Source: a virus (Duplodnaviria; Heunggongvirae; Uroviricota; Caudoviricetes). Taken from it: a stretch of DNA of 19,994 bases. A model generated the notes under the pieces. The model was not told the DNA's origin, did no database searches, and saw only the letters and a list, made by a program, of their open reading frames with translations. Shown here one piece after another: positions 10,435 through 19,773 of the stretch (position 1 is the stretch's first letter; each line of letters begins with the position of its first letter). The translations under genes and the position numbers were made by a program. The stretch lies in the IMG/VR virus record IMGVR_UViG_2695420538_000013. The stretch is one strand, 5' to 3'.

Positions 10435-10767
10435 ATGAACCCTTATATTTATCTTGGTGGTGCAATACTTGCAGAGGTCATTGGTACAACCTTAATGAAG
10501 TTTTCAGAAGGTTTTACACGGTTATGGCCATCTGTTGGTACAATTATTTGTTATTGTGCATCATTCTGGTTATTAGCTCAGACGCTGGCTTATATTCCTA
10601 CAGGGATTGCTTATGCTATCTGGTCAGGAGTCGGTATTGTCCTGATTAGCTTACTGTCATGGGGACTTTTCGACCAACGGCTGGACCTGCCAGCTATTAT
10701 AGGCATGATGTTGATTTGTGCCGGTGTGTTGGTTATTAATTTATTGTCACGAAGCACACCACATTAA
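10435..10767 (+). CDS. emrE: Small multidrug resistance (SMR) efflux transporter EmrE
   Basis: 110 aa from MNPYIYLGGAILAEVIGTTLMKFSEGFTRLWPSVG..., four TM helices with the conserved Glu14. The track ORF begins at an upstream TTG. Confidence 0.95.
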   Translation: MNPYIYLGGAILAEVIGTTLMKFSEGFTRLWPSVGTIICYCASFWLLAQTLAYIPTGIAYAIWSGVGIVLISLLSWGLFDQRLDLPAIIGMMLICAGVLVINLLSRSTPH

Positions 10768-10796
10768 AATAATTTGTTTCTAAACGACTAAAATAT

Positions 10797-10830
10797 GGAG
10801 GCTCTTATATTTATATGAGCCTCGTTTTAT
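10797..10830 (+). terminator. Rho-independent terminator downstream of emrE
   Basis: GGAGGCTC (10797-10804), 12-nt loop, GAGCCTC (10817-10823), then GTTTTATGCTTTTT. Confidence 0.6.
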
Positions 10831-11021
10831 GCTTTTTGTTAATGTCTTTATTTTTTATGTATTCTTTTGTGCTTTCAAGATTATGGCGTAAGAAAATTGC
10901 AATACGATTATTGTTGTATATTCAAGATAATGTGACCTTAATTGTCTTTTTAAATAAAAATTAAACAAAAATTATATCCCACCACTAAGGTTTATAAAAG
11001 CATACGTTAGCAGGTGTCACC

Positions 11022-12548
11022 ATGAAAAAAGCCATAGCATATATGCGATTTTCATCACCAGGTCAGATGTCTGGTGACTCATTAAACCGACAGAGAAGAC
11101 TTATTGCTGAATGGTTAAAGGTAAATAGTGATTATTATCTTGATACCATAACATATGAAGATTTAGGATTAAGTGCATTCAAAGGAAAGCATGCACAATC
11201 AGGAGCTTTTTCGGAATTTTTAGATGCTATAGAGCATGGTTATATATTGCCAGGAACTACATTGTTAGTTGAAAGTCTGGACAGACTTTCAAGAGAAAAA
11301 GTCGGTGAAGCGATTGAACGTCTGAAATTGATTTTGAATCACGGTATTGATGTTATAACTCTTTGCGACAATACAGTCTATAATATTGACTCTTTGAATG
11401 AGCCATATTCATTAATAAAAGCCATACTTATAGCACAAAGGGCAAATGAAGAAAGCGAGATAAAGTCAAGTCGGGTTAAATTATCATGGAAGAAAAAACG
11501 GCAGGATGCACTGGAATCAGGTACGATTATGACGGCGTCTTGTCCGAGATGGCTCTCCTTAGATGACAAAAGAACGGCTTTTGTTCCAGACCCCGACAGG
11601 GTGAAAACTATTGAGCTAATTTTTAAACTCAGGATGGAAAGGCGCTCATTGAATGCAATAGCCAAGTATTTAAATGATCATGCTGTAAAGAATTTCTCAG
11701 GAAAAGAAAGTGCATGGGGACCTTCTGTAATTGAAAAATTATTAGCGAATAAAGCTCTGATAGGTATATGCGTACCTTCATATCGTGCAAGAGGGAAAGG
11801 GATAAGTGAAATCGCTGGCTATTATCCCAGAGTCATATCAGATGATTTGTTTTACGCTGTACAGGAAATTCGGTTGGCACCTTTTGGTATTAGCAATAGT
11901 AGCAAGAATCCTATGCTAATAAATCTACTTCGAACAGTTATGAAGTGTGAGGCTTGTGGTAATACCATGATTGTTCATGCGGTATCTGGAAGTTTGCATG
12001 GCTATTATGTTTGTCCGATGAGAAGATTACATCGATGTGACAGGCCATCAATAAAAAGAGATTTGGTTGATTATAATATCATTAATGAATTGCTTTTTAA
12101 TTGTAGCAAAATTCAACCAGTTGAAAACAAGAAAGATGCTAATGAAACTTTAGAGTTAAAAATTATTGAGCTTCAGATGAAAATTAATAATTTAATCGTT
12201 GCATTGTCTGTCGCGCCTGAAGTTACCGCTATAGCAGAGAAAATAAGACTATTAGATAAGGAATTACGAAGGGCTTCGGTATCATTGAAAACTTTGAAGA
12301 GTAAAGGTGTAAATTCATTCAGTGATTTTTATACTATTGACTTAACCAGTAAAAATGGACGAGAGTTATGCCGTACACTTGCCTATAAAACATTCGAAAA
12401 AATCATAATTAATACGGATAATAAAACCTGTGATATTTATTTTATGAATGGCATTGTTTTTAAACACTATCCTTTAATGAAAGTAATATCCGCCCAGCAG
12501 GCGATAAGTGCTCTCAAATATATGGTTGATGGTGAGATTTATTTCTAA
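11022..12548 (+). CDS. ybcK: Large serine recombinase (resolvase/invertase N-terminal catalytic domain, recombinase domain, zinc-ribbon), YbcK-like
   Basis: 508 aa. N-terminal AIAYMRFSSPGQ...SLNRQR (catalytic Ser region), central recombinase domain, Cys cluster CEACGN...YYVCP...HRCD, and C-terminal coiled-coil-like region. Confidence 0.9.
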   Translation: MKKAIAYMRFSSPGQMSGDSLNRQRRLIAEWLKVNSDYYLDTITYEDLGLSAFKGKHAQSGAFSEFLDAIEHGYILPGTTLLVESLDRLSREKVGEAIERLKLILNHGIDVITLCDNTVYNIDSLNEPYSLIKAILIAQRANEESEIKSSRVKLSWKKKRQDALESGTIMTASCPRWLSLDDKRTAFVPDPDRVKTIELIFKLRMERRSLNAIAKYLNDHAVKNFSGKESAWGPSVIEKLLANKALIGICVPSYRARGKGISEIAGYYPRVISDDLFYAVQEIRLAPFGISNSSKNPMLINLLRTVMKCEACGNTMIVHAVSGSLHGYYVCPMRRLHRCDRPSIKRDLVDYNIINELLFNCSKIQPVENKKDANETLELKIIELQMKINNLIVALSVAPEVTAIAEKIRLLDKELRRASVSLKTLKSKGVNSFSDFYTIDLTSKNGRELCRTLAYKTFEKIIINTDNKTCDIYFMNGIVFKHYPLMKVISAQQAISALKYMVDGEIYF

Positions 12549-13012
12549 ATAATGATCTCGGATTTTAAGTTATGCTATGGTGATAAAGTGCAAGACAGAA
12601 TTAATTATCTTTGACGAAACTTAATGGGTAATTACTTTGTTTGCTCCCACAAGCGAGTTTTGTACGGCTGTATTGGGGTAGTAAATGAGCTATACAATCT
12701 TAATCATTTGTCAGGTGAGAACTCTTGGTCGCAGATTCAAATACTGAAAATACGTGACAAATTATTATGAGCAAAATGGTGTATGTCACGTATTTTGAAT
12801 GATAGGTTAAAAAATAACACCGACTTTCGTAGGTATTACTAATAATAAAGCAGAGTTTTTAGATAGTATCAATGTGCTTTGTGTATATTGTGGCAAATAA
12901 TTGGGTTGGGGGTACAATTGTGATTGCTTTTGCATAAAAATTGCGCCTTTATGCATAATGAGATAAAGGAATATCAAATAAAATAACGATAGGTCATAAC
13001 AAAGAGGTTTTT

Positions 13013-13564
13013 ATGAAAACACTTATCGTTTCAACTGTATTGGCATTCATAACATTTTCTGCGCAGGCTGCAGCATTTCAGGTCACTAGTAATGAAATAA
13101 AAACAGGAGAGCAACTTACAACGTCTCATGTCTTTTCTGGATTTGGGTGTGAAGGTGGTAATACATCGCCCTCATTAACCTGGTCTGGTGTTCCTGAAGG
13201 TACCAAAAGCTTTGCCGTAACTGTATATGATCCAGATGCACCTACAGGCAGTGGTTGGTGGCATTGGACTGTTGTTAATATTCCAGCAACAATAACATAT
13301 TTGCCCGTTGATGCAGGGAGACGTGATGGAACAAAACTGCCGACTGGTGCTGTTCAAGGCCGAAATGATTTTGGCTATGCTGGGTTTGGTGGCGCGTGTC
13401 CTCCTAAAGGAGATAAACCACATCATTACCAGTTTAAAGTATGGGCTCTAAAAACTGAAAAGATTCCTGTAGATTCTAACTCCAGCGGAGCGTTAGTTGG
13501 TTATATGCTTAATGCTAATAAAATCGCAACCGCTGAGATAACACCAGTTTATGAGATAAAGTAG
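13013..13564 (+). CDS. ybcL: Secreted PEBP/YbhB-YbcL family (UPF0098) protein
   Basis: 183 aa with signal peptide MKTLIVSTVLAFITFSAQAAA. PEBP motifs DPDAPTGSGWWHW and HHYQFKVWAL. AGAGG Shine-Dalgarno. Confidence 0.85.
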   Translation: MKTLIVSTVLAFITFSAQAAAFQVTSNEIKTGEQLTTSHVFSGFGCEGGNTSPSLTWSGVPEGTKSFAVTVYDPDAPTGSGWWHWTVVNIPATITYLPVDAGRRDGTKLPTGAVQGRNDFGYAGFGGACPPKGDKPHHYQFKVWALKTEKIPVDSNSSGALVGYMLNANKIATAEITPVYEIK

Positions 13565-13573
13565 GGTGAGAGT

Positions 13574-14371
13574 ATGCTGGCAAGAGGTAAGACTAACTTA
13601 AAGATCGAAGAAATACGGATGCATAAACATCATGAGATTCATAGGGTTAAGCCTCTTATGCCAGCTTTGTGTCGTATCCGTCAGGGAAAGAAAGTTATCA
13701 ATTGGGAGACGCATACTTTAACTGTTGATAATAATCAAATAATATTATTTCCTTGTGGTTATGAATTTTATATTGAGAATTATCCTGAAGCAGGGCTTTA
13801 TCTTGCAGAAATGCTTTACTTACCCATTGATTTAATTGAGAGTTTCCAAAAACTTTATACGGTAACTGATCAAATACGTAACAAAACAAGTTTCTTTTTA
13901 CCTCAGAATCCTGAGTTAATATATTGTTGGGAGCAACTAAAAACATCTGTTTCCCGAGGCTTCTCAACTAAAATTCAGGAGCACTTAGCAATGGGCGTTC
14001 TACTTTCGTTAGGAGTGAATCATGTTAATCATTTACTTTTATCATATAGTAAACAATCATTGATAAGTCGTTGTTATAACCTGCTGCTATCCGAACCCGG
14101 CACAAAATGGACAGCAAACAAGGTTGCTCGATATCTCTACATTTCTGTTTCTACATTACATCGCCGTCTAGCAAGCGAGGGGGTAAGTTTCCAAAGTATA
14201 CTGGACGATGTGAGGTTAAATAATGCGTTGTCTGCTATACAAACGACGGTAAAACCTATAAGCGAGATTGCCAGAGAAAATGGTTATAAGTGTCCTTCTC
14301 GTTTTACTGAAAGATTTCATAATCGTTTTAATATAACACCAAGAGAGATAAGAAAAGCTTCCAGAGAGTAA
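13574..14371 (+). CDS. ybcM: AraC/XylS-family transcriptional regulator YbcM-like
   Basis: 265 aa. C-terminal double HTH ([21 protein letters not shown]...[30 protein letters not shown]). Confidence 0.85.
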
Positions 14372-15494: not shown

Positions 15495-15854
15495 ATACCT
15501 ACAGTATCACATTACCCTGGCCTCCGAGCAATAATCGCTATTACCGCCATAATCGCGGGCGCACGCACGTCAGTGCAGAGGGGGCAGGCATACCGCGATA
15601 ACGTCGCCCGAATCATTAAAAACGCAATGCTGGATATCGGCCTGGCTATGCCTGTGAAAATCCGCATTGAGTGCCACATGCCGGATCGCCGTAGCCGTGA
15701 CCTGGATAATCTGCAAAAAGCCGCTTTTGACGCACTCACTAAAGCAGGTTTCTGGCTGGATGATGCTCAGGTCGTTGATTACCGCGTTGTGAAGATGCCT
15801 GTTACCAAAGGTGGGAGGCTGGAACTGACCATCACCGAAATGGGGAATGAATGA
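15491..15854 (+). pseudogene. rusA: Holliday-junction resolvase RusA, disrupted by a +1 frameshift in a G5 run (15580-15584)
   Basis: The GTG-start frame gives (M)[30 protein letters not shown] and then stops. The remaining RusA sequence [36 protein letters not shown]...TITEMGNE continues in the next frame (track ORF 15573..15854). Confidence 0.75.
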
Positions 15855-16076: not shown

Positions 16077-16454
16077 ATGCGTGATATTCAGATGGTTCTT
16101 GAGCGTTGGGGAGCGTGGGCGGCTAATAATCATGAAGATGTGACCTGGTCGTCCATTGCCGCCGGTTTTAAGGGATTAATTCCTTCAAAAGTAAAATCTC
16201 GCCCGCAATGTTGTGACGATGACGCGATGATCATTTGCGGGTGCATGGCCCGTCTGAAAAAGAACAACAGCGATTTGCATGATTTATTGGTGGACTATTA
16301 TGTCGGCGGCATGACTTTTATGGCGCTTGCACGTAAGCATGGGCGATCTGATTGTTGGGTTGGCAGGATGCTCCAGAAAGCTGAGTGCGTAGTGGAGGGT
16401 ATGCTGATGGTGTTGGATCTCCGATTGGAGATGGATGCTGATTGTTCGAAATAA
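16077..16454 (+). CDS. quuD: Late-gene antiterminator Q (QuuD-like)
   Basis: [22 protein letters not shown]... with Cys-rich zinc-binding region ([16 protein letters not shown]). Positioned just upstream of the late promoter/terminator and lysis genes. The start may instead be the TTG one codon earlier (16074) or the TTG at 16062. Confidence 0.85.
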
Positions 16455-16552: not shown

Positions 16553-16582
16553 AGCCAGCCTCCCCAAAGGCTGGTTTTTTTC
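16553..16582 (+). terminator. Rho-independent terminator (tR'-like) downstream of Q and its promoter region
   Basis: AGCCAGCC, loop TCCCCAAA, GGCTGG, followed by a T7 run (16575-16581). Confidence 0.7.
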
Positions 16583-16609
16583 TAATAAGTATTATTTCGG
16601 GTAGGGATT

Positions 16610-17134
16610 TTATTGTTTAACCCATAATAATTCATTGACATTGAATCCCAACTTTTGAGCGGTTCGCACATAGTCTGCTTTTACTTTATCTGGAATAGTT
16701 GGGGTCCTTGCCAGAATCCATAGGTATTCTCTGTTCGGACCACTGACAAGAGCATACTTATACTCATCATCCAGTTTGATTACATTATAGCCACCATAGA
16801 AGGGGCCAAAAAACGAAACCTTCAACGCTGCAGTTTTAGTATCTCCAGTAAAGTATGCTTTACCTTCGCTCTCGCTCCATTTATTTTTCGTTGGATCGTA
16901 TCCACGGTTAAGTACACGAATCCCTCCGTCGTTCCGTTTTCCATAGGTAGCGCTGACCTGTTCCAGACCACGTTCGAACCGGTTCTCGAGGCGAGCTATT
17001 TCATACCATTTTCCGAGGTAGCGGTTGGCGTCAAAATTTGTAATCGGCTGCACACCTTTAGGTGGTGTCGGGGCCTTACATGCTATAAGAGTGAAAGAGA
17101 GTGCAATGCCAGTCAACACAGGCCATAACTTCAT
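16610..17134 (-). CDS. Bacterial lipocalin (Blc-like) outer-membrane lipoprotein
   Basis: 174 aa with lipoprotein signal and lipobox LIAC (MKLWPVLTGIALSFTLIACKAP). Lipocalin motifs NFDANRYLGKWYEIARLENRFERG and KVSFFGPFYGGYNVIKLD. Diverged from, not identical to, my recollection of chromosomal Blc. Confidence 0.85.
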   Translation of the reverse strand: MKLWPVLTGIALSFTLIACKAPTPPKGVQPITNFDANRYLGKWYEIARLENRFERGLEQVSATYGKRNDGGIRVLNRGYDPTKNKWSESEGKAYFTGDTKTAALKVSFFGPFYGGYNVIKLDDEYKYALVSGPNREYLWILARTPTIPDKVKADYVRTAQKLGFNVNELLWVKQ

Positions 17135-17326
17135 AATAAATCCTGTACTTTTGATAGTTGAGAGTAAGTATGAAAGATAGATGATTACGACCGATCACTT
17201 AAAGAACTTTCATACTATATTAGGAATAGTCTATAACAGAAAAATTGTCAGTGATGACGCCAGAAAGGCAATTTATTCCGTGCACTACACAGTTTATGTG
17301 TTAATGAATTAGTCAAGGGGGAGAAT

Positions 17327-18286
17327 ATGATAAAAAAACCTGTGATTGGAATCAGCGGTTGTTTGGCCGGCTCTGCTGTTCGTTTTGATGGTGGTCACAA
17401 AAGAGCTGACTTTTTAATGGACAAATTAGTGGAATGGGTAACATTCAGACCAGTATGTCCGGAAATGGCTATAGGGCTGCCAGTTCCGCGTCCTGCTCTA
17501 CGTCTTGTGCGCTCGACGCAAGGAAATATACGGATGTGTTTCAGCCACGACCAGAATGAGGATGTGACAGAGAGAATGACAGAGTTTAGTCGTTCTTATA
17601 TGGACAAATTAAAGGATGTATCGGGGTTTGTGGTTTGTGCTAAATCTCCCAGCTGTGGCATGGAGCGCGTGCGTGTCTATGATGAAAATGGTAATCGAGG
17701 TCGTAAAGATGGAGTGGGACTATTTACGAGCACTTTGATGGAAAAGTTTTCCTGGCTACCGGTTGAAGAGGATGGGCGATTACATGATCCAGTGCTTCGT
17801 GAGAATTTTGTTGAAAGAGTTTTTGCTTTGCATGAGCTCAATCACCTTTACAAGGAGAAATTATCAAGAAGAGAGTTATTAGCTTTTCATAGTCGTTATA
17901 AGCTTCAGTTGTTGGCGCATAGTCAGGCAGGCTATAAAGATATGGGACCATTTGTGGCTGCAATACACGAGTGGGCGGACCTTGAATCATACTTTGAGGT
18001 GTATCGTGATAAGCTGATGGCGATTCTCAGAAAACCTGCATCACGTAAAAATCACACGAATGTGCTGATGCATATACAGGGGTATTTTAGTAACTACTTA
18101 AGTACACGCCAGCGTAAAGAGTTGAGCGAGGTTATACTTAACTATCGTTCTGGCACATTACCTCTTCTTGCGCCGTTGACTCTGCTGAAGCATTATCTGG
18201 GTGAGTATCCTAATGATTACTTGCTTACACAGAATTACTTCGATCCCTATCCGGACGAACTGGCTCTAAGACTGATGGTAAATTAA
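17327..18286 (+). CDS. DUF523 (TudS-type Fe-S desulfidase) fused to DUF1722 (YbgA-like) protein; candidate RudS-like thionucleoside/tRNA desulfidase
   Basis: 319 aa with AAGGGGGAG Shine-Dalgarno. N-terminal half has conserved Cys residues (GISGCLAGS, VCPEMAIGLP, VVCAKSPSCGMERV) as in DUF523; C-terminal half resembles YbgA/DUF1722. Domain assignment from memory, not a search. Confidence 0.75.
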   Translation: MIKKPVIGISGCLAGSAVRFDGGHKRADFLMDKLVEWVTFRPVCPEMAIGLPVPRPALRLVRSTQGNIRMCFSHDQNEDVTERMTEFSRSYMDKLKDVSGFVVCAKSPSCGMERVRVYDENGNRGRKDGVGLFTSTLMEKFSWLPVEEDGRLHDPVLRENFVERVFALHELNHLYKEKLSRRELLAFHSRYKLQLLAHSQAGYKDMGPFVAAIHEWADLESYFEVYRDKLMAILRKPASRKNHTNVLMHIQGYFSNYLSTRQRKELSEVILNYRSGTLPLLAPLTLLKHYLGEYPNDYLLTQNYFDPYPDELALRLMVN

Positions 18287-18637
18287 TTGTATGCGATATC
18301 ATCCAAAAGGATGAGTTCCTGCATGCAGGATATTTACAATCGTAAAAACTACACTATGATACCCAGAGTGTCAGTTTGTATAAAAACTCTGTTTACGCTG
18401 AAGAAACCATTGAGATGCAACTTAAAGTTGGTAAACATGCCAGTCAAAATATATAATATTATGATTCCACGCAGCTATATATAATATAACAGATTGGTTT
18501 AATAATTTGTCTTTGTGAGTTAAATACATAATTTTATACTTGTGATGCAATGAGATTTTCCTTATTGTTGAACTGGCGAATATTGATTTTCCACCTATAC
18601 TTACCTGGTGTAACCCCAATGATATCAGGTGGATAAT

Positions 18638-19369
18638 ATGCCATACATATGTTCTATCATTTTGGTGTTGAACTCGTTTGATGTCCGAATTGGTAAAGAA
18701 GATATTTTGTTTAAAAAAGGAAGTGCTGTTCTCATTGATTACAATTTAAAAGATTTTTTTTCATCAAATATAGATCATGTAATGATCGTAGATGTTGAAG
18801 AGAAAACAGTTAATGATTTCTTTAAAAGCAACACACTCTCACCTTTTTCTGTAAGAAGGTTTTATCCGGCATACTTGATGGTGGAATGTGAAGATTTTTC
18901 ATTGTTAAAGAACTTGATTGCATGCTTGAATTGTGATGGCAGAACTGTGGATTTTGTTAGAAATCAAATATCACTTGCATGTCTTGCTATCTTATCTTCA
19001 GAGAAAATAGTGCAAAGTTTTTTATTTGGATGTCTTAATAGTTTAGGAAGTAAAGTTAAGGCTATTATTCACACGGATATATCTGCAGCATGGAGACTTT
19101 GTGATATATCTTCAAGACTGTATCTGAGTGAAAGTCTGTTAAAAAGAAAATTAAAGCACGAAGGCTTATCATTTAGTAAGTTAATTCTTGAAGAGCGAAT
19201 GGTGATGGCGGAAAGGTTATTAAGCTACAATTTATATTCTGTTGGAAAAGTTGCTGAGATATGCGGTTATGAAAACACGTCATATTTTGTGAGTGTTTTC
19301 AGAAGATATTTTGGTGTTCCTCCCCATCAATATTCATCAAGACTTTTTTTAGAAAAAGACATGATGTAA
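18638..19369 (+). CDS. AraC-family transcriptional regulator, AppY/EnvY-like, in AT-rich DNA
   Basis: From MPYICSIILVLNSFDV... (AGGTGG Shine-Dalgarno 5 nt upstream; the track ORF begins at GTG 18629). C-terminal AraC double HTH (WRLCDISSRLYLSESLLKRKLKHEGLSFSKL...VAEICGYENTSYFVSVFRRYFGVPP). N-terminus resembles what I recall of AppY. Confidence 0.8.
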   Translation: MPYICSIILVLNSFDVRIGKEDILFKKGSAVLIDYNLKDFFSSNIDHVMIVDVEEKTVNDFFKSNTLSPFSVRRFYPAYLMVECEDFSLLKNLIACLNCDGRTVDFVRNQISLACLAILSSEKIVQSFLFGCLNSLGSKVKAIIHTDISAAWRLCDISSRLYLSESLLKRKLKHEGLSFSKLILEERMVMAERLLSYNLYSVGKVAEICGYENTSYFVSVFRRYFGVPPHQYSSRLFLEKDMM

Positions 19370-19557
19370 CGTGATGCGTTTTAATGATTTTGTAATTTTC
19401 GTATTTGATAATTGTATGATGCTTTCAGCTACGCCAGAATAATCGCTGGCGTTTTTCTTTTTGAATAGATGTTCAAGCCTTACGCTAATGTAACTTCTAT
19501 ACCTTTCCTCTTCGTTCCGAACCGTGTACACCATCCGTTATTTGCGGAGGTGAGGCT

Positions 19558-19773
19558 ATGAAATCCATGGATAAGTTAACAACGGGCATTGCCTACGGCA
19601 CCTCCGCAGGCAGTGCTGGCTACTGGTTTTTACAGCTGCTCGATAAAGTCACGCCCTCACAGTGGGCAGCAATAGGTGTGCTGGGTAGCTTGGTATTTGG
19701 CTTGCTGACGTACCTGACAAACCTTTATTTCAAGATTAAAGAAGATAAGCGCAAGGCTGCGAGAGGTGAATAA
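19558..19773 (+). CDS. Phage 21-type class II holin (pinholin S21-like)
   Basis: 71 aa [71 protein letters not shown]. Dual-start MKSM motif, two TM segments, GGAGGTG Shine-Dalgarno. Confidence 0.9.

Follow-up and report, generated by a model that had tools for sequence, protein, structure and literature searches.

A probable RudS-type tRNA 4-thiouridine desulfidase encoded in the Q-to-holin cassette of a DLP12-like prophage

The gene at positions 17327-18286 of the DNA analysed here, a stretch of 19,994 nucleotides that we refer to as the window, encodes a protein with the architecture of RudS, the fusion of a TudS domain with DUF1722 that was named and characterised as a tRNA 4-thiouridine (s4U) eraser by Jamontas et al., NAR 2024 (PMC11417400). 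It is very likely that the window protein is a RudS-type tRNA s4U desulfidase which acts by the mechanism set out below; it would be expressed from an accessory cassette of a lambdoid prophage and would probably benefit the bacterium that carries it. The finding is real, and the gene had been correctly located and interpreted in the initial annotation; the enzyme is already known, including a phage-borne member that sits in the same cassette. Since the family, its chemistry and a phage member have been published, no new category is opened by this locus. What is new here is the anatomy of the locus, its distribution and the selection acting on it.

The rudS gene and its product

The open reading frame (17327..18286, plus strand) starts with ATG, is intact and encodes 319 residues. 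It is preceded by a strong Shine-Dalgarno sequence, AAGGGGGAG (17315..17323, plus strand), read off the sequence and ending 3 nt before the ATG. RefSeq places a "YbgA family protein" (WP_000592546) at the same coordinates, the E. coli records being identical over the rudS region. Pfam assigns residues 7-149 (17345..17773) to PF04463, "2-thiouracil desulfurase" (formerly DUF523), the TudS catalytic domain, with E=3.1e-40 and 137.9 bits against a cutoff of 34.7. Residues 192-309 (17900..18253) match PF08349 (DUF1722) over the full model, positions 1-117 of 117, with E=1.9e-40 and 138.2 bits against a cutoff of 22.5. Both domains exceed their curated cutoffs by a wide margin, and the fusion of DUF523 with DUF1722 claimed in the initial annotation is thereby confirmed. 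The DUF1722 domain is all-helical and has been proposed to be a tRNA anticodon-arm binding module (PMC11417400).

The conserved cysteine ligands on which the desulfidase reading depended are present as Cys12 (codon 17360-17362), Cys44 (17456-17458) and Cys110 (17654-17656, all plus strand), and the other catalytic residues are Glu46, Arg55, Ser107 and Ser109. A full HMMER scan for relatives returned 1170 representative clusters at E<=1e-30, from which 65-66 diverse full-length proteins, 35-76% identical, were aligned. Ser10, Pro45, Glu46, Gly50 and Arg55 are invariant in this alignment, and Cys12, Cys44, Ser107, Pro108, Ser109, Cys110 and Gly111 are conserved in at least 90% of the relatives. 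The family profile matched TudS (6z92) with E=3.4e-16, with the SaCLlG, CPE, PR and SPSCG motifs in register. The AlphaFold2 model of the protein is one continuous chain with a mean pLDDT of 95.7 and a pTM of 0.92, and its N-terminal domain superimposes on TudS (6z93/6z96) with TM scores of 0.71-0.76 and a probability of 1.00. The C-terminal half consists of helices spanning residues 155-300, for which the structure comparison of the model returned no solved relative, as was also the case for the RudS authors (PMC11417400). No required residue is thus missing from the window protein, and its fold is the correct one; judging from its ligands it would bind a [4Fe-4S] cluster.

Comparison with characterised desulfidases

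RudS_vir, encoded by gp66 of phage 1H12 (YP_009909557), is likewise 319 residues long, is identical to the window protein at 298 of these (93%) without gaps, and has the same Cys12, Cys44 and Cys110. The two differ by 21 amino acid substitutions, with a dS of about 0.30, and the 1H12 gene lies in the same cassette of Q, blc-like gene, rudS, AraC-like gene and holin. The window copy is found in a chromosomal DLP12-like prophage with an IS-split integrase, whereas the 1H12 copy is found in a free phage. By this comparison the window gene is essentially an allele of the published one. RudS_vir was one of the six orthologs tested by Jamontas et al., synthesised from Escherichia phage 1H12 (NC_049947, H3V29_gp66) and described with Cys12/44/110; its overexpression left less s4U in E. 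coli tRNA, as measured by HPLC-MS/MS (PMC11417400). Across the six orthologs overexpressed in E. coli, tRNA s4U fell 4.7- to 26-fold, and tRNA desulfidation by RudS_vir was apparently lower than that by RudS_ST with comparable soluble protein (PMC11417400). The window allele, 93% identical to RudS_vir, would be predicted to remove s4U from tRNA as well. The RudS architecture and this identity support the desulfidase function that had been suggested for the gene, and the accompanying remark that no phage function was established is outdated as far as the enzymatic activity is concerned, since RudS_vir of 1H12 lowers s4U in E. coli tRNA (PMC11417400). A literature search for RudS, DUF1722 or YbgA with phage or prophage, and for the WP/YP accessions, returned nothing on the prophage gene beyond PMC11417400. 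A paper on phiv142-3 orf6/orf10 was considered and set aside as unrelated, none of its primer arms occurring in the window.

Two chromosomal orthologs, RudS_KT (Pseudomonas putida PP_0741) and RudS_ST (Salmonella STM1389/ORF319), have the same two-domain fusion and catalytic set as the window protein, and RudS_ST and RudS_vir are reported to have their Fe-S cysteines at the window-protein positions (PMC11417400). Assigned by offset and motif, RudS_KT Cys17/49/114 correspond to window Cys12/44/110, E51 to E46, R60 to R55, S111 to S107 and S113 to S109; mutation of the catalytic Glu, the two Ser or Arg60 abolished RudS_KT activity (PMC11417400). By the same assignment R24 corresponds to R19 and G27 to G22, Y25 is F20 in the window protein, a change that leaves RudS_KT fully active as the Y25F mutant (PMC11417400), and N26 differs, being D21. 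The tRNA-binding residues of the RudS_KT DUF1722 domain are N202, N203, S243, R244 and T246 (PMC11417400), and for these a motif match is suggested only at Ser239-Arg240 of the window protein. The chromosomal genes also differ in their surroundings, MerR/LitR regulators being linked to them and, in many cases, photolyase or light-response operons as well, whereas the window gene neighbours a lipocalin and an AraC-type regulator. Neither a MerR/LitR light-responsive regulator nor a photolyase was found among the neighbours of the window gene, though these are usual beside bacterial rudS, and their absence counts against the preferred reading.

TudS (DUF523, PDB 6Z92/6Z96) is a [4Fe-4S] desulfidase of thiouracil and 4-thio-UMP that has the same fold as the window N-terminal domain at 26-27% identity, with the same Cys/Glu/Arg/Ser active-site motifs; its ligand motifs Cys10/43/104 align to window Cys12/44/110. 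Unlike the window protein it stands alone without DUF1722, takes free bases and nucleotides as substrates and fails to reduce the s4U of tRNA in vivo. With 319 residues and a fused DUF1722, the window protein is not itself a stand-alone TudS (DUF523 alone, about 150-165 aa), although the catalytic domain is homologous. The RefSeq name derives from the other half of the fusion. YbgA of E. coli K-12 (b0707), a stand-alone DUF1722 protein encoded upstream of the photolyase gene phr, is 49% identical to the window protein over residues 164-315 but lacks the catalytic domain and has no effect on s4U; overexpression of either TudS alone or YbgA did not lower tRNA s4U in E. coli (PMC11417400). Since the window protein scores 190.8 bits against the YbgA equivalog (NCBIfam NF007549, a 169-aa model of DUF1722 only), below its cutoff of 237 and over residues 160-315 only, it is not a YbgA equivalog, and by this measure the name undersells the phage gene. 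Derivation of rudS from E. coli's own ybgA can also be rejected, given the identity of only 49% and the closest full-length relatives at about 76% in other Enterobacteriaceae.

Organisation of the Q-to-holin cassette

The block containing rudS runs in the order Q (+), Blc-like lipocalin (-), rudS (+), AraC-YdeO-like regulator (+) and holin (+). The late-gene antiterminator Q (16077..16454, plus strand; PF06530, E=3e-50, and RefSeq annotation) is followed after about 100 nt by an intrinsic terminator (16553..16583, plus strand; scan hit with a hairpin of -14.9 kcal/mol, z=-3.6), which would occupy the position of lambda tR'. Divergent to rudS lies the gene for a Blc-like outer-membrane lipocalin lipoprotein (16610..17134, minus strand; PF08212, E=7e-44), which scores 316 bits against the cutoff of 267 for the NCBIfam Blc subfamily. 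This lipocalin paralog is always paired divergently with rudS and has no apparent functional tie to a tRNA desulfidase.

The 192-bp region between the two divergent genes (17135..17326) is AT-rich (33% GC) and about 90% conserved between diverged cassette variants, and presumably holds the cassette's own promoters. A sigma-70-like match at 17158-17185 (9 of 12 positions) is weak and not above chance, the region holding 13 such matches with 11.6 expected, which is the chance level. A perfect 10-nt inverted repeat, AGTATGAAAG and CTTTCATACT separated by 30 nt (17167-17176 and 17207-17216), was considered as a regulatory palindrome. Its arms are degraded in the 1H12 and HS variants without compensatory changes, and it is therefore probably fortuitous.

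Downstream of rudS, after an AT-rich spacer of 342 bp, is the gene for an AraC-family (YdeO/GadX-like) regulator (18638..19369, plus strand; 32% GC) with HTH_18/HTH_AraC domains, which belongs to the prophage-borne AppY/PatE/Psr-like class and scores 126.8 bits with the YdeO model, below the cutoff of 348. Its nearest models are YdeO, GadX and HilD, and it falls under every equivalog cutoff. Since the scan predicted no terminator between rudS and this gene (18286-18629), the two may be co-transcribed. A second intrinsic terminator (19431..19457, plus strand; scan hit with a hairpin of -12.1 kcal/mol, z=-2.2) stands between the cassette and the lysis genes, of which the P21-type holin S (essD; 19558..19773, plus strand; PF04971, E=2e-35, and annotation) is the first. 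The hairpin at 16553 is invariant in four diverged variants and the stem at 19431 is kept in all four even where its flanks diverge; cassette variants with both hairpins differ by a dS of 0.2-0.3.

Homology to the sister phage ev243, which carries a porin at this position, ends within the last part of Q (16436) and restarts at 19547, just before the holin. Since homology breaks and resumes at these points, the 3.1-kb segment between Q and the holin is a swappable cassette. It has the classic layout of a moron, namely inserted, replaceable cargo flanked by conserved terminators. Stx phages carry stx at the same Q-to-S position. PHROGs recognises all three cassette genes (phrog_3275, 2809 and 1450) and gives no function for them. 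No tRNA genes were found near rudS, and the only Rfam match was the ALIL frameshift pseudoknot of the IS3 element.

The carrier prophage

That the gene is prophage-encoded, as first proposed, was confirmed by the gene set of the window, which is that of a DLP12-like lambdoid prophage: int, exo/bet/gam, a cI-like S24 repressor, the O/P replication genes and ren, together with emrE, ybcK/L/M/N, ninE, rusA, Q, holin S and lysozyme. In the closest genomes the insertion adjoins espL1. An IS3-family element interrupts the tyrosine integrase, leaving an N-terminal part (1-915) and a C-terminal part (2241-2522); between them are the minus-strand transposase reading frames (918-1808 and 1805-2131) and the ALIL frameshift pseudoknot (1734-1850). 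In other strains the integrase of near-identical prophages is intact; the window prophage is probably unable to excise. A second sign of decay is rusA (15573-15854), which lacks its N-terminal part, the Pfam match starting at model position 25, and is annotated as frameshifted in near-identical records. More accessory genes are found in the early-right region (10435-14371), namely those for an emrE-like SMR efflux pump, the serine recombinase ybcK (11022-12548), the PEBP/Raf-kinase-inhibitor-like YbcL (13013-13564) and a second AraC-type regulator, YbcM (13574-14371).

Proposed mechanism and role

Close homologs have been shown to replace the C4 sulfur of tRNA s4U in a non-redox reaction that depends on a [4Fe-4S] cluster, and DUF1722 has been modelled onto the tRNA anticodon arm (PMC11417400). 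By homology, Cys12, Cys44 and Cys110 of the window protein would hold the [4Fe-4S] cluster, and its fourth iron would bind a flipped-out s4U8 through the sulfur. Water would be activated by Glu46, which Arg55, Ser107 and Ser109 hold in position, and s4U would be converted to U. Docking of the C-terminal DUF1722 helices on the anticodon arm would make tRNA, rather than free thiouracil, the substrate.

In the lysogen, transcription of rudS, and possibly of the AraC-like gene with it, would start in the AT-rich region upstream of rudS and end at the terminator at 19431 so that lysis is not turned on. After induction, Q-modified RNA polymerase would pass both terminators, and rudS would come first among the sense genes of the late operon. 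The level of s4U may thus be lowered in the lysogen, after induction, or both. E. coli itself would have only the inactive stand-alone DUF1722 protein YbgA, and the cassette would add the ability to lower s4U. With less s4U, fewer s4U8-C13 cross-links would be expected to form under UVA, with a shorter growth delay and less ppGpp and stringent response. The links among s4U, UVA, growth delay and ppGpp have been described, and rescue from the UVA growth delay has been reported only for RudS_KT of Pseudomonas (PMC11417400).

It is possible, though not likely, that the enzyme acts mainly in the lytic cycle, where a burst of RudS after SOS or UV induction would erase s4U, keep tRNA chargeable and avoid arrest by UVA cross-links and ppGpp, so that the synthesis of virion and lysis proteins is protected. 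Such a role is compatible with lysogenic conversion, and it is the position of rudS in the late operon that keeps it under consideration: the gene lies between Q and the holin in late-operon orientation, with terminators that are passable only by Q-modified polymerase. The presence of the cassette in the plaque-forming phages 1H12, the Lambda_ev series and IdasGreatGrand, as well as the described s4U/UVA/growth-delay/ppGpp connection (PMC11417400), also favour a lytic role. However, while RudS can keep s4U8-C13 cross-links from forming, it is not known to undo existing ones. Furthermore, the cassette is intact both in the decayed remnant of E. coli HS, which has no tail genes nearby, and in the window prophage with its IS-disrupted integrase. 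Its persistence in these two prophages speaks for an advantage to the host that does not depend on lytic growth. A more specific proposal is that the cassette constitutes a phage-timed epitranscriptomic switch in which induction by sunlight or UV leads to read-through by Q and a burst of RudS that strips s4U8 from host tRNA. We regard this as unlikely; if true, there would be no earlier example of a virus that secures its own translation with a tRNA de-modification enzyme.

The remaining explanations, namely thiopyrimidine salvage, neutral carriage and defence, are weaker. It is improbable that the enzyme serves, like stand-alone TudS, in the salvage or detoxification of thiouracil or 4-thio-UMP with tRNA not being its physiological substrate. 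The active-site residues are common to TudS, and in a uracil auxotroph growing on 4-thiouracil RudS_vir gave delayed growth and yet the shortest lag among the RudS proteins tested (PMC11417400). However, no RudS supported growth on thiopyrimidines as well as TudS does, and there was no growth on 2-thiouracil with any RudS tested (PMC11417400), which makes the 2-thiouracil assay suggested in the initial annotation a poor choice. In addition, tRNA s4U is lowered in vivo by RudS_vir and not by TudS (PMC11417400), and the tRNA-binding DUF1722 domain has been kept under purifying selection.

Distribution, selection and origin

The preferred reading, that of a tRNA s4U desulfidase of benefit to the host, is supported by the distribution of the gene. 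In a scan of complete E. coli genomes rudS was found in 1136 of 5426 (21%), with at least 80% of the gene present in 1064, and almost all copies are chromosomal. The 4-kb region from Q to the lysis genes was at least 80% present in 979 genomes. E. coli has been said to be without RudS (PMC11417400); since 21% of the complete genomes carry the gene, this holds for K-12-type strains and not for the species. Lambdoid prophages thus provide about a fifth of complete E. coli genomes with full-length RudS. Among IMG/VR viral contigs, a scan with a single protein query that reaches close relatives identified 80 contigs; the rudS frame is intact in every one, and the five-gene order (Q+, Blc-, RudS+, AraC+, Holin+) is complete in 71, the exceptions being mostly at contig ends. 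Among sequenced phage isolates, full-length RudS occurs in 12 records, all of them of E. coli lambdoid phages. The cassette is found in different backbones, including the DLP12-like phage of the window, a KilA-N/DUF968 lambdoid phage and the decayed Qin-like remnant of E. coli HS.

Comparison of cassette variants gave a dN/dS of 0.10-0.19 in rudS, which indicates that this gene is under purifying selection; in blc the value was 0.06-0.12. It could be argued that rudS is a neutral passenger, an enterobacterial chromosomal gene that hitch-hikes with the Q-S region and is useless to phage and host alike. The nearest non-phage relatives are indeed chromosomal genes at about 76% identity in Citrobacter, Serratia, Klebsiella and Enterobacter, and the copy in BL21 has been destroyed by IS3 with no obvious cost. 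The low dN/dS, the intact frame in all 80 viral contigs and the retention of the gene in 21% of complete genomes and in different prophage backbones make neutrality very improbable. Least probable of all is a role in inter-phage conflict or host defence, in which altered tRNA thiolation would affect a tRNA-targeting nuclease or a superinfecting phage. Phages are known to manipulate tRNA pools, which is the sole point in favour, whereas neither rudS nor its two neighbours gave a PADLOC match, the genes beside rudS include none for defence or anti-defence, and literature support was not found; the counter-interference role raised initially is therefore without evidence.

Its authors present RudS as a bacterial tRNA modification "eraser" of a newly described type (PMC11417400), and the residual interest of the locus lies in the biology of such a widespread prophage-borne eraser, that is, in its benefit to phage or host. 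Lysogens carrying rudS provide a natural system for the tuning of host tRNA s4U, UVA tolerance and the stringent response by a prophage.

In BL21, a common laboratory strain, the Qin-like prophage carries the Q/blc-like/rudS cassette with rudS cut by IS3 after 147 nt (NZ_CP053601.1, 1558651-1558797; locus L005, 6001-6147), so that only a remnant is left. BL21 was the expression host of the RudS assays, which accordingly has only a remnant of the same gene. In Citrobacter braakii (locus L006, 110-6960) the chromosomal rudS closes a cluster of SnoaL, SDR, amine oxidase, DUF1365, cyclopropane-fatty-acid-synthase-like (CMAS), DUF2878, unknown and DUF3833 genes that all point the same way, and none of these has been inherited by the phage cassette. 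Origin of the lipocalin from this cluster was rejected, BLASTP showing no similarity to the two proteins of about 175 aa found there. The Blc-like lipocalin is unrelated to the DUF3833 and chalcone-isomerase-like proteins beside Citrobacter chromosomal rudS.

RudS homologs about 74% identical, encoded beside a DUF3833 gene, were also found on some 200 mostly conjugative plasmids (e.g. NZ_CP129856.1, 511655-512611) of Klebsiella, E. coli, Shigella, Enterobacter and Salmonella, and these plasmids are a second mobile route for the enzyme. In a contig of Salmonella Derby (locus L009, 4285-6960) a 74%-identical rudS adjoins a phage-type DUF1367 gene and ttcA (seen as a PF01171 domain), which we take to encode the tRNA 2-thiocytidine synthetase. 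On the E. coli K-12 map this is the site of the Rac prophage, and the arrangement may be what is left of a prophage, or two tRNA-sulfur genes may have come together by coincidence.
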